Assembly (NCBI GenBank): GCA_963813135.1
Contig: CAWEXY010000011.1
Span: forward strand, 182,374 to 246,373
Direction of reading: 5' to 3'
Source of the DNA: an uncultured Verrucomicrobiae bacterium
Lineage (GTDB): Bacteria > Chlamydiota > Chlamydiia > Chlamydiales > Rhabdochlamydiaceae
DNA length: 64,000 bases
Shown here: positions 27,900 through 31,205 of the stretch, piece by piece
Position numbering within the stretch: the stretch's first letter is position 1
Layout: each line of letters opens with the position of its first letter
The notes under the pieces: generated by a model
Told to the model about the DNA's origin: nothing
Databases searched by the model: none
What the model saw: only the letters and a program-made list of their open reading frames with translations
Position numbers and translations under genes: made by a program

Positions 27900-30800
27900 A
27901 TGGCTGCTAATTTACCACCGGATCTTCGTCCTCAATTTGCTGACCCCGAAACACCCTGGCAATTGAGCAATGCTCTTTTTGAGGAGGTTTTAAACGCACC
28001 CGCAGGTCCCTACAAAAAGTGTGTAGTAACTCAAAAACATATTGAGTGGGATTTTGTTCATCGATTTTTCAATGCTAACAGACCGACAAACCTGGTTATT
28101 AAAGCGATTTATTGCATCCACAACTCCAATCTGACAGAGCTTTTTAATAAGGGGGTTCGTCAGATGGCCGAGCAGGCCAAAAATACTGCCGCATTTGGTC
28201 CGAAATGGGAACTAGAAAAAAGTTCTCAGCGGCAAGAAGTCATGGATCGATGGAAAAAAATTTCATCATCTTATACCCCATTCAAGGCACCGCTTGATAA
28301 CGAGAGAAAGGAAGAATGCTCAAACGTCTACGTTCTTCCTCTTTGGCATGGAAGTAATCCGGCCAAATGCGATTCAATCTCTAAAACTGGTTTTGCTTAT
28401 TTTGGTCAAGGAGCCACAAACACAACTGATGCCGGTTTTTTCGCCAGAGGGATTTATTTTACTAATAGCTGCAAATACGCCACCGATATCTATGCTGCCG
28501 GTATCGATGGTAAAGCCGGTATCAATGCTAAAGAAGGACACCTCTTATTGTCTTGGGTTTCAATGCGAGAACCATATCCTTTAATCGGCCATAAAAAATT
28601 CCCAGCCCAACCCCCGGATATGGACACATTCCTTGGAAAAAACAAAAAAGCAGGCTACAACGCTCACTTTATTCCTGTGAAATCCACCAACCCTAATAAA
28701 ATATGGTGGTCTGAATACCATCCTTATCCTCCTGGCGACAATCCGGTTTGGGATGAGTTTGTCGTTTTTGAGTCAGCCCAAACCCTTCCTCGTTTTTGGA
28801 TCGAACTCGAATTGAATCAGCCTTCTGTTGTTCCTGCTTTTCATTATATACAAGAATTTCAGACATTCATTAACAATTTATTAAAAAACAGTGATATTCA
28901 AAACACACCCGATCTTCAATTGCTTCTTAAGAACAAAGTTGTTTTCCTGGGCAAATTTTACAGTGGTTCCGAACGATTAACATCTAGGGAAGAGGAATAT
29001 TTCGATGTCGCAAAGAGTCTTCTAGATAATGTACAAAAGGTTAATCAGGCTGCTGCTAAAAAAATCTTTGAGCTTGAAGTTGTTTTTTCTTTTAATTTAG
29101 CGCCTAAAAAAATACAAAAAACAATCAATGTAAAAGCAAATCATCCTCACTATATTTCTCGTAATACTTTTCACAAGGAATTAGAGCAACTCCTAGTCAA
29201 TAAAAAATCTTATCAGCACGTATTATTTGGTCCTGGGGGTAGCGGCAAAACCGAGCTTGCTATTGCTTTTGCGAATCTACATCGACAATCTTTTGCATCT
29301 GTTTGTTTGATTTCCTGCGGAACAGACAACGAAAGAATGCTCGGTTATCGGGATCTTGCTTCGGTATTGAAAATCAATATCGATGCAAAAGATGGGGATG
29401 ACGAGATTGTTAGAAAAGTCCATTTTCAACTCGAGCAAACGCAAGGAAAACCCTGGTTGATCATCTTTGACAATTTAAATACAGCCCATCCCCTCCCCCC
29501 CCTCCCCGCTCAAGGAGTTGTCTGTCTCATTACTGCTTACGCCAAAGGAAATTTTGTCTCGGGAACGCCCATTTGGCCTTTTTCCGAAGAAGAAGGTATA
29601 GAACTGCTGGAAAAGGCGACCGGGAAAAAATCCCCCCACTTCAAAGAACTTCTCAAGATCTCTGGTTGCTATAGCTCGCGCCTAGATCAGGTTGCTTCAT
29701 ATATCTCCTCTCATCCAGGAATGGATATAGAAAAGTTTATCGAACTTCTAAAGAACGGACTGCCGCTCCCTTTGGAAATTTCTGTTCACTACAACAAAAC
29801 TACAGAGGTCTCCTTTCGTCCTACGATTGACAGCTTACAGCCTCACGCCATTGAGTGTCTTAAGGTTTTTTCTCATTTTGATCCCGCAAGCATCCCCGAA
29901 TCGTATTTAGACACTTGGCTTTCTAAAACCTATCCTGACGTTAATACTAGATTTACACTCTTGCAAGAGATCAGAAAAAACCTCAGCCAGCTTGGCTTAA
30001 TAAAAGATGCTGGACAAAATGGTTGTTTTCAGATGCATCCTGATTTGATCAAAGAGGTTGGAAAATCCCAAAAATGGGATCCTGCTGTTACTCTTGCCGC
30101 GTCGGTAGATGTTCTCATTTCTGTAGGAGAAAAATGGGAACTTCCAAATGTCCAAGCTTGGAACCAATCAATGGAAGCAGCAAGCTTATGGGCTATGCAC
30201 GCTGTTTCGATATGCAAGAAAGAAGGATTCGAAGCCATTCCACCCCAAAAAAGAATTGCCGTTTGGGAAAAATTAGCCATTTATGAATATGAAAGCTGGC
30301 GTTTTAACGAGGCGTTGTTGTGCTATCAAAATGTTCTAAAAATCCAAGAACAGAGATTTGGAAAAGACAGCCCCCAATATGTTGACAGCCTTCTTTATAT
30401 GAGCAAATGTTACATTATGCTAAAAAATTATAAGATGGCTTTAGAATTAACTGAGAGTTCTATATCATTGTACACAAAATTAAACGACTATGATAGTTGC
30501 AAAAGGGCCGAGCGCTTATACATGATGGGGCAAATTCATATGGCGGTGGGTGTTTTTAATGATACTCCAGATGCGCGAAAATCTATTGAACAGGCTTTGT
30601 TCTTTTACGAACGTGCTTTGAATGTCACCTATATATCCCAATGGCCAACGAAGCTTTTAGCAAAAATTTACAATGCAAAAGGTTATTGTTATTTGATTCT
30701 GGAGAATTCTTCAGAATCAATCTTAAATTTTGAGAAATCGATGGAAACTCTTAAATCTTCCAAATGTGACGATCCTTCGCTATCAATGAAGATTTTGGAT

Positions 30801-31205
30801 GGAATAGGAGCTAATTATTCTAATAGTTTCTGGGACTGGAACTATCGTATAAAAAAACATGAAGAGGCAATCAAAATCGGTAATGATGCCCTAGATGCAA
30901 ACAATCCATTCCTTATAGGAAGCCTGATGTTTTTAACTCAAGCTTATATTGAGATGAATGATTATAAAAAAGCAACTGAAGCATCTAGAAAAGCATACGA
31001 CATTATATCGGTATTAAATAAAAAATACCCTGAATTAATGAAAGACGAACTCCCTACATGGCAGGCAAAAAAAGATGATCTTACGGGCAAGTTCATTAGC
31101 AAAATATTTATTGGTCTAGGATGGGCACTTAGGTTGAGCTATATGAGCCTTTATATGAGGCTTCCCCCTGTTTGGAGATATCAGCAAAAGAGCCTGTTAG
31201 ATTAG
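27900..31205 (+). CDS. STAND/NLR-like protein: PARP-like ADP-ribosyltransferase domain + NB-ARC ATPase + TPR repeats
   Basis: - H-Y-E blocks: LPLWH150GS, ARGIY186FT, WDE286FVVFE
- P-loop: GPGGSGK450TE
- Walker B: KPWLIIFDNLN
- ARC winged-helix block: LQPHAIECLKVFSHFDPASIPESYLDTWL
- C-terminal TPR-like repeats. Confidence 0.8.
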   Translation: MAANLPPDLRPQFADPETPWQLSNALFEEVLNAPAGPYKKCVVTQKHIEWDFVHRFFNANRPTNLVIKAIYCIHNSNLTELFNKGVRQMAEQAKNTAAFGPKWELEKSSQRQEVMDRWKKISSSYTPFKAPLDNERKEECSNVYVLPLWHGSNPAKCDSISKTGFAYFGQGATNTTDAGFFARGIYFTNSCKYATDIYAAGIDGKAGINAKEGHLLLSWVSMREPYPLIGHKKFPAQPPDMDTFLGKNKKAGYNAHFIPVKSTNPNKIWWSEYHPYPPGDNPVWDEFVVFESAQTLPRFWIELELNQPSVVPAFHYIQEFQTFINNLLKNSDIQNTPDLQLLLKNKVVFLGKFYSGSERLTSREEEYFDVAKSLLDNVQKVNQAAAKKIFELEVVFSFNLAPKKIQKTINVKANHPHYISRNTFHKELEQLLVNKKSYQHVLFGPGGSGKTELAIAFANLHRQSFASVCLISCGTDNERMLGYRDLASVLKINIDAKDGDDEIVRKVHFQLEQTQGKPWLIIFDNLNTAHPLPPLPAQGVVCLITAYAKGNFVSGTPIWPFSEEEGIELLEKATGKKSPHFKELLKISGCYSSRLDQVASYISSHPGMDIEKFIELLKNGLPLPLEISVHYNKTTEVSFRPTIDSLQPHAIECLKVFSHFDPASIPESYLDTWLSKTYPDVNTRFTLLQEIRKNLSQLGLIKDAGQNGCFQMHPDLIKEVGKSQKWDPAVTLAASVDVLISVGEKWELPNVQAWNQSMEAASLWAMHAVSICKKEGFEAIPPQKRIAVWEKLAIYEYESWRFNEALLCYQNVLKIQEQRFGKDSPQYVDSLLYMSKCYIMLKNYKMALELTESSISLYTKLNDYDSCKRAERLYMMGQIHMAVGVFNDTPDARKSIEQALFFYERALNVTYISQWPTKLLAKIYNAKGYCYLILENSSESILNFEKSMETLKSSKCDDPSLSMKILDGIGANYSNSFWDWNYRIKKHEEAIKIGNDALDANNPFLIGSLMFLTQAYIEMNDYKKATEASRKAYDIISVLNKKYPELMKDELPTWQAKKDDLTGKFISKIFIGLGWALRLSYMSLYMRLPPVWRYQQKSLLD

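Follow-up and report, generated by a model that had tools for sequence, protein, structure and literature searches.

The 64,000-nucleotide stretch analysed here (the window), which derives from an uncultured bacterium placed by GTDB in the Rhabdochlamydiaceae (contig CAWEXY010000011.1), carries at positions 27900..31205 (+) a gene whose 1101-aa product joins, in a single chain, an N-terminal PARP-type ADP-ribosyltransferase (ART) head, a nucleotide-binding oligomerisation domain (NOD) of the NB-ARC type found in signal transduction ATPases with numerous domains (STAND), and a C-terminal tail of tetratricopeptide repeats (TPR). We regard this domain-level assignment as virtually certain. With a confidence somewhat short of even, we further propose that the protein is a ligand-gated, oligomerisation-activated ADP-ribosyltransferase, with the host as its somewhat more likely site of action. 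The open reading frame (ORF) is intact from its ATG start and coincides exactly with the single 1101-aa frame described in the original prediction, which had been made from the letters of the DNA and a list of ORFs, and a check of the sequence found all motifs quoted there at the residues given (Table 1). The three PARP blocks in their order, searched as a regular expression, had no match in shuffles of the 1101-aa protein (0/20000).

Three folds in one chain

The head was assigned by sequence profiles and by structure modelling. Pfam PARP (PF00644) matches aa 145-303 with 28.0 bits (E 1.8e-6), which is a small margin over the cut-off of 26.7, and scores up to 32-36 bits in head homologues. 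A profile (A2) made from 18 aligned and trimmed heads, used in place of an earlier full-length profile (A1) that mostly matched DARPins via the ankyrin tails, retrieved PARP4, PARP2, ZAP/PARP13, PARP14, PARP12, tankyrase and PARP1 from the PDB with a best E of 1.4e-4, and its sole non-PARP matches were two entries, both at E > 0.5. In the A2 alignments, aa 39-102 fall on the first strands of the catalytic domain of PARP12/13/14, so that the fold extends over aa ~38-305 and contains an insertion ahead of the strand that carries the catalytic His. The AlphaFold2 (AF2) model of aa 1-318, with a predicted local distance difference test score (pLDDT) of 85.9 and a predicted template-modelling score (pTM) of 0.87, was matched by Foldseek to PARP1 ART domains in the PDB (E 5.9e-11 to 1e-9, probability 1.00) and to ZAP with a TM score of 0.76 normalised to the target; among the 50 PDB matches listed, all were PARP1 apart from ZAP/PARP13. 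PARP-domain proteins of giant viruses and phages likewise matched the head in a viral structure library. The PARP-like head that had been suspected in residues 120-310 was thus recovered by Pfam, by the profile and by the structure model alike.

The same holds for the proposed H-Y-E catalytic triad. In A2, H150, Y186 and E286 align with the PARP2 blocks LWHGS, GKGIYFAD and YNEYIVY, respectively, and in the AF2 model they are carried by predicted strands 144-152, 185-188 and 284-289. All three are nearly invariant among 121 aligned homologues, and G151, S190, Y193 and Y198 are likewise nearly invariant. From the alignments and the position of the strands, the triad would lie in the NAD pocket, and the conservation of these seven residues argues for active enzymes under selection. 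The head is followed by a helical linker, and in most homologues the phmmer envelopes of the head reach aa ~390, while homology to the STAND chassis begins at aa ~404.

The central module is recognised by several models. The N-terminal, NB-ARC-like part of the NCBIfam FxsT model (FxSxx_TPR) matches aa 413-714 (E 3.5e-25), and Pfam DUF7779 matches aa 643-714; the protein is not an FxsT equivalog, because its score of 88.6 lies far under the equivalog cut-off of 300. A profile of the STAND module built from a 12-sequence alignment (A3) retrieved from the PDB the plant NOD-like receptor Roq1 (7.5e-11), AfsR (1e-9), the entry 9h2l, an 'NB-ARC domain-containing protein' (7.7e-11, positions 27-364), and Apaf-1 (6.6e-9), the last over positions 22-349 against residues 126-465, which comprise the nucleotide-binding domain (NBD), the helical domains and the winged-helix domain (WHD). 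The AF2 model of aa 400-1101 (pLDDT 78.9) found its best Foldseek match in the crystal structure 6MFV (E 5.7e-11, 741 alignment columns), with Apaf-1, CED-4 and Avs3 (entries 3j2t, 4m9s, 8dgc) among the further matches. Pfam NB-ARC (PF00931) itself has no match to the protein at E<=1, and the NB-ARC call of the original prediction was therefore upheld by A3 and Foldseek but not by the Pfam model; as such, the module is filed as NB-ARC-type on profile and structure evidence. In relatives, PF00931 passes its cut-off of 23.5, with 27.4 bits in P0206, 36.4 in L054 and 25.5 in a patatin-headed paralogue in the window. The P-loop and Walker B-like blocks named in the prediction are present and conserved across the STAND family alignment, as is the MHD-like His H713 (FQMHPD), and the ARC-type winged-helix block is present as well, with the A3 match to Apaf-1 extending over the winged-helix domain.

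The tail, described beforehand as TPR-like, scores 56.1 bits with Pfam TPR_12 (cut-off 30.1) and 29 bits with TPR_2 (cut-off 27), and is also matched by TPR_10. In the AF2 model of aa 400-1101 helices occur throughout residues 355-643, and Foldseek matched the tail to the TPR domains of LGN/Pins and of kinesin light chain (KLC). A single-sequence search of the PDB with the whole protein returned weak kinesin-light-chain TPR matches alone. A membrane anchor in the C-terminal residues was considered and rejected as unsupported, since the best 19-residue Kyte-Doolittle mean of 1.13 is too low to call a membrane helix with confidence and the pLDDT there is below 50.

Head family, shared chassis and genomic setting

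A word-indexed search found 163 proteins with homology to the first 310-390 residues, nearly all with a Pfam PARP call, and an exhaustive representative search gave 188 proteins at E<=1e-30. The tails attached to this head are highly varied and include ankyrin, WD40, Sel1, LRR, TPR and HEAT repeats as well as SidE-like (PF12252), DUF294-type and NACHT domains, with most members carrying a plain repeat tail and no NTPase. A scan of species-representative genomes returned 72 head loci, almost all of them in Chlamydiota-type metagenome-assembled genomes (MAGs) with Parachlamydiales, Simkaniaceae, Rhabdochlamydiaceae or Chlamydiales titles; a few of the MAGs are titled Verrucomicrobia, Bacteroidia or Gammaproteobacteria, and no cultured reference strain is among the 72 loci. 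One chlamydial genome (MFD02416.bin.1.76, L027-L060) alone has more than 20 head loci, and the family is an extreme lineage-specific expansion in environmental Chlamydiota. Other genomes also hold several head loci, some within ~10 kb of each other, as in MFD05580.bin.1.47 (L005-L008, L014, L024).

The STAND-TPR chassis in turn is found with other heads, namely patatin (P0131, P0161, P0204, L030; P0204 is annotated as Chlamydiota), trypsin-like (P0158, P0165) and HEAT-like (P0124). The PARP-like head is joined to a STAND or NACHT module in P0132, P0206, P0190, L039, L054 and P0113, the NTPase of the last being NACHT. P0132, with 1495 aa, is the other protein of complete architecture; it matches residues 8-891 of the query and is also solitary amid chlamydial housekeeping genes. 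The nearest relatives of the query head (41-44% identity) carry no STAND module, and heads that are fused to STAND in other proteins come at ranks 169-220 among 220; the nearest relatives of the query NOD (38-45% identity) are HEAT- or patatin-headed proteins. As head and NOD are each nearest to other architectures, the fusion arose independently and repeatedly, and the other fusions are not orthologues of the query. The original prediction knew of no PARP-NB-ARC-TPR protein in Chlamydiota; indeed we found none described, but at least six other database proteins join this head to a STAND module.

Several further loci bear on the same families. The window itself encodes, 23 kb away at 54189-57617 (+), an 1142-aa ankyrin-patatin-NB-ARC protein (GC 0.41) that has no TPR tail and whose NOD is 30% identical to that of the 1101-aa protein (E 2e-29). 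Directly downstream of this gene, at 57644-60646 (+), lie four tandem paralogues of 211-265 aa and low GC, with near-identical N-termini and coiled-coil signatures, and directly upstream, at 52992-53906 (+), lies a gene for a 304-aa protein. The latter is a stand-alone version of a conserved domain (…WAKYFGDIGDEPPLP…SHWALLTRD…) that otherwise makes up the C-terminal half of short, 620-680-aa PARP-like members and for which neither Pfam nor the PDB gave a match; the HW.L..D motif in it is reminiscent of CE-clan proteases, which we take as an impression only. In one Parachlamydiales MAG, two head-STAND fusions occur, one that has an inserted ankyrin stretch and a long array of TPRs (L039, 4968-9572) and one at 4983-7490 of L054. 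In L030, likewise from a Chlamydiota MAG, an ankyrin-patatin-STAND-TPR gene (647-4909) lies directly upstream of a PARP-like gene (5001-5903).

The gene for the 1101-aa protein stands alone. Its neighbours encode OppA-type binding proteins, a MORN-repeat protein, YggT, Dus and RecA, and no partner, defence or mobility gene (transposase or integrase) adjoins it. PADLOC-DB gave 0 families at E<=1 for the protein, NOD included, and phage and plasmid collections held no relative of the head. The ORF has a GC content of 0.397 and a GC content at third codon positions (GC3) of 0.363, compared with ~0.50 and ~0.57 in flanking housekeeping genes, and is preceded by a leader of still lower GC with an AAGGAG ribosome-binding site just 5' of the ATG, so that the solitary gene in an A/T-rich islet behind a ~290-bp leader is as had been described. 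By blastn, window positions 25573-27593 correspond to 4201-6212 and positions 31354-34668 to 6319-9580 of a syntenic sister contig (L074), and the intervening segment, leader and gene included, is absent there. The DusB neighbour is 92% identical to that of the sister contig and ~70% identical to those of Rhabdochlamydiaceae/Chlamydiales MAGs, a result that speaks for Chlamydiota and for nothing narrower. Because of this absence and the low GC, the data point to acquisition of leader and gene as one unit, in a 3.7-kb low-GC insertion. The only repeat that flanks the insertion is a 12-nt direct repeat with 11/12 identical positions (27585-27596, TCCCGAAGGCTA; 31290-31301, TCTCGAAGGCTA), which may be an insertion microhomology or due to chance. 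A riboswitch or leader RNA was considered for the leader and rejected, as no Rfam family matched, and positions 27610-27899 hold no strong sigma-70-like site and no promoter or terminator pattern that convincingly exceeds chance.

Within the NOD, the gene contains a C8 homopolymer. Removal of one C gives a 566-aa product identical to P0122 from another assembly, where the downstream remnant of the frameshift is recorded as a separate 494-aa protein, and this difference in tract length could reflect phase variation or an assembly error. The only G/C runs of at least seven in the 64-kb window are this tract and a C7 (56341-56347), both in STAND genes; their number is not above a rough expectation for 64 kb of the same composition (~3).

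Elsewhere, the window is a compositional mosaic, in which low-GC ORFs (GC 0.36-0.42, GC3 0.27-0.36; Table 1) are set among core genes of ~0.50 and ~0.57, respectively. One of them, 47067-48383, encodes an AAA_14/DUF4143 ATPase. The RecA frame at 19093-19791 (-) is just 233 aa long, and its match to the RecA profile begins at position 112; the N-terminal third is absent from the frame, for which a frameshift, an error of sequencing or a pseudogene may account.

Table 1. Coordinates of the gene, its domains and motifs, and other low-GC features. Nucleotide positions refer to the window; residues refer to the 1101-aa protein.
Feature	Position (nt)	Strand	Residues (aa)	Details
Whole ORF	27900..31205	+	1-1101	PARP-like head, helical linker, NB-ARC NOD, TPR tail
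PARP-type ADP-ribosyltransferase fold	28011..28814	+	~38-305	insertion at aa ~100-140
LPLWHGS			146-152	H150
H150 codon	28347..28349	+	150	His in 114/121 homologues
FFARGIYFT			180-188	Y186
Y186 codon	28455..28457	+	186	Tyr in 121/121 homologues
VWDEFVVFE			283-291	E286
E286 codon	28755..28757	+	286	Glu in 120/121 homologues
Helical linker	28830..29099	+	~311-400	common to most head-family members
NB-ARC-type STAND module (NBD-HD1-WHD; HD1, helical domain 1)	29109..30149	+	~404-750	
LFGPGGSGKTELAIAF			442-457	P-loop block, K450
Walker A GPGGSGKT	29229..29252	+	444-451	G, G, G, K invariant in family alignment
KPWLIIFDNLN			517-527	Walker B block
Walker B LIIFDN	29457..29474	+	520-525	Asp invariant, next residue N or D
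C8 homopolymer	29495..29502	+		within NOD, codons L-P-P-L
LQPHAIECLKVFSHFDPASIPESYLDTWL			646-674	winged-helix block
TPR-like helical repeat sensor	30159..31025	+	~754-1042	~13 helices
ALLCYQNVLKIQEQRFGKDSPQYVDSLLYMSKCY			805-838	TPR example
C-terminal 59 aa	31026..31202	+		moderately hydrophobic; pLDDT <50 for model residues 645-702
A/T-rich leader	27610..27899	+		290 bp, GC 0.283, AAGGAG ribosome-binding site
Inserted segment (leader + gene)	27594..31353	.		3760 bp vs 106 bp in syntenic sister contig
Low-GC ORFs	7889-8986, 21606-24653, 37648-39972, 41821-43623, 47067-48383, 54165-60643			several without Pfam match

A proposed mechanism and its alternatives

By analogy with STAND proteins whose mechanism is known, including those Avs proteins with a TPR sensor, in which a ligand lifts autoinhibition and the N-terminal effector is scaffolded by oligomerisation (PMC13581612), we propose that the C-terminal TPR array would bind a protein ligand and thereby free the NB-ARC module from autoinhibition, upon which the module would exchange or hold ATP and oligomerise. 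Oligomerisation would cluster the N-terminal PARP-type heads and so turn on NAD-dependent ADP-ribosylation, whether of the mono or the poly type, perhaps with modification of the protein itself or net consumption of NAD. In evolutionary terms, the protein is a product of a modular chlamydial toolkit, in which one head is placed on many tails and one chassis is fitted with swapped heads.

The weakest step concerns the site of action, for which we consider the host, after secretion, somewhat more likely than the interior of the bacterium. In favour of the host are the way in which the head family has expanded, the eukaryote-type repeats (ankyrin, WD40, Sel1, LRR, HEAT) and the SidE-like domain joined to its members; its confinement to Chlamydiota-type MAGs, with few titled otherwise; and the lack of a PADLOC match, of defence neighbours and of phage or plasmid relatives of the head. 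The expansion, the repeats and the SidE-like domain are features of the family and as such support secretion circumstantially. Inspection of the N-terminus MAANLPPDLRPQFADPETPW showed no hydrophobic core of the Sec type. A precedent for the host-directed reading is Wolbachia phage WO, for whose STAND domains a role directed at host cell death has been suggested (PMC5062602). Here we speculate that the protein might be an effector that is itself built like a NOD-like receptor (NLR), with, once it has been delivered into a protist host, a host protein bound by the TPR array, an NB-ARC module that oligomerises and clustered heads that ADP-ribosylate, possibly poly-ADP-ribosylate, targets of the host. 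We hold this version to be possible but rather unlikely; if it were true, activity would be licensed in the right compartment alone, as in a STAND-gated, host-activated toxin, and the heads would be the first family of functional PARP-type enzymes in Chlamydiota.

Several observations weigh against a gated enzyme. Y547 occupies the position of the sensor-1 Arg, where the nearest clade has Y or C and distant relatives have R, and S592 stands at the Pro of the GxP motif, which is missing in this copy alone; given both substitutions, nucleotide handling may be altered or lost. In addition, PF00931 fails to match, and the TPR signal is weak (TPR_12 E 4e-15, compared with 1e-48 to 1e-100 in most relatives). 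All of this would also fit a head that is constitutively active, attached to a NOD-TPR part that has lost its switching function and serves as a scaffold or targeting module in the manner of other repeat tails, the more so as most members of the head family have plain repeat tails without an NTPase. However, this copy retains Walker A as well as the Asp of Walker B and the MHD-like His, and the sensor-1 Tyr/Cys is common to the whole nearest clade (P0124, P0131, P0161, P0165, P0181), usually with a Lys or Ser two residues further on, which speaks for a conserved variant rather than decay; the repeated independent fusion of heads to STAND modules also suggests that the NTPase matters. We thus consider an ungated enzyme improbable. 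The C8 frameshift seen in another assembly raises a further objection, as some members of the population may carry the gene in a silenced or decaying state, and in its extreme form this would make it a recently acquired accessory gene that now decays and has no current function. For this reading speaks, besides the frameshift, that no orthologue above ~45% identity exists among 15 billion proteins, its own cluster excepted; some of the NOD motifs are degenerate as well. Against this, the 3.3-kb frame is intact and has a good ribosome-binding site, all catalytic and P-loop residues are kept, and the AF2 models of both halves are confident, so that decay seems to us very improbable indeed.

A stronger challenge to the gated, host-directed enzyme comes from cell-autonomous immunity, since an effector followed by NB-ARC and TPR, with patatin, protease or NAD-using heads, is its classic signature in bacteria and fungi (PMC4986451, PMC7159879). 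With the gating mechanism unchanged, the protein would then remain in the chlamydial cytoplasm, where the TPR array would sense a phage or mobile-element protein and the head would ADP-ribosylate essential targets or drain NAD and so kill or arrest the infected bacterium, as in Avs- or NLR-like abortive infection. The tripartite layout fits this, as do the structural likeness to STAND-TPR proteins and Avs3, the sibling chassis, whose patatin and trypsin-like heads are typical of death effectors, the low GC of an accessory gene that one close genome has and another lacks, as is frequent in defence genes, and a homopolymer tract that would be able to toggle a costly gene. However, PADLOC gives no match, even for the NOD, there are no defence-island neighbours, and the lineage-specific expansion of the head, the eukaryote-type repeats and the SidE-like domain are unusual for anti-phage genes; an obligate intracellular lifestyle also limits exposure to phages. 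In addition, large surveys of STAND proteins name neither chlamydiae nor PARP heads (PMC13581612, PMC7159879). Taken together, we consider defence of the bacterial cell a serious possibility, albeit an unlikely one.

Significance and comparison with known systems

STAND and NLR proteins that bear an enzymatic head recur as a central motif of immune systems across bacteria, fungi, plants and animals, and the PARP-type (H-Y-E) ART is a head missing from those named in two STAND surveys: one contains no PARP or ADP-ribosyl terms (PMC13581612), and in the other PARP is absent and ADP-ribosyltransferase is named solely as a toxin of toxin-antitoxin systems (PMC7159879). A fungal NLR inventory likewise contains no PARP or ADP-ribosyl terms (PMC4986451), and our literature search found nothing on PARP-type heads on STAND NTPases, nor on a PARP-like family in Chlamydiota. 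As far as this search shows, the combination of a PARP-type head with NB-ARC and TPR is undescribed, although the design principle itself is well known. The host is unexpected too, as neither anti-phage NLRs nor PARP enzymes would be looked for in an obligate intracellular bacterium, and behind this one protein stand a large unstudied PARP-like family, with at least 20 copies in some chlamydial genomes, and a chassis on which patatin, protease and ART heads are exchanged. If secreted, the protein may represent a new class of self-gated effectors; if not, it would extend NLR-type abortive infection to chlamydiae. With either outcome, the head offers a simple NAD-dependent read-out.

With the PARP/ARTD catalytic domain, the head shares the ART fold, the aligned H-Y-E residues and the N-terminal strands of PARP12/13/14, at just 13-16% identity in the Foldseek PDB matches listed. 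It differs in an insertion of, from our reading of the profile alignments, ~40 residues before the His strand and in a conserved proline-rich N-terminal extension (P.P.DL...LP.P.TPW). By Pfam, the protein has no PARP helical regulatory domain and no WGR, BRCT or macro domains, and instead the head is fused to a STAND NTPase.

Among STAND proteins, 6MFV, a STAND ATPase with a TPR sensor, has the same order of NOD and then TPR as aa 400-1101, at 14% identity. Going by the title of the entry, and to our knowledge, it has no enzymatic effector of the PARP-like kind. Avs proteins share the order of effector, STAND NTPase and TPR-like sensor, and Avs3 is among the Foldseek matches; the 1101-aa protein is set apart from them by its PARP-type ART head, the lack of a PADLOC match, its obligate intracellular bacterium and a setting outside any defence island. 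As to the NLR-like NB-ARC-TPR proteins of fungi and bacteria (patatin-NB-ARC-TPR, FxsT, AfsR), AfsR is matched by the NOD profile and the FxsT model by the protein, and the chlamydial chassis has siblings with patatin heads as in patatin-NB-ARC-TPR proteins; NB-ARC and TPR together with an enzymatic N-terminal domain are a common theme there (PMC4986451).

A different kind of likeness is found in intracellular bacteria. Environmental Chlamydiae have lineage-specific expansions of eukaryote-like effector families, namely the ubiquitin-related F-box, BTB and U-box proteins (PMC4209131), and the eukaryotic association module of Wolbachia phage WO has STAND, ankyrin and TPR genes and latrotoxin/NACHT modules (PMC5062602). 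These families are ubiquitin-related or latrotoxin/NACHT and not PARP-like, but they have in common with the head family described here a head, catalytic or adaptor, that is joined to repeat tails of varying kind, as well as numerous paralogues in each genome and an obligate intracellular way of life.

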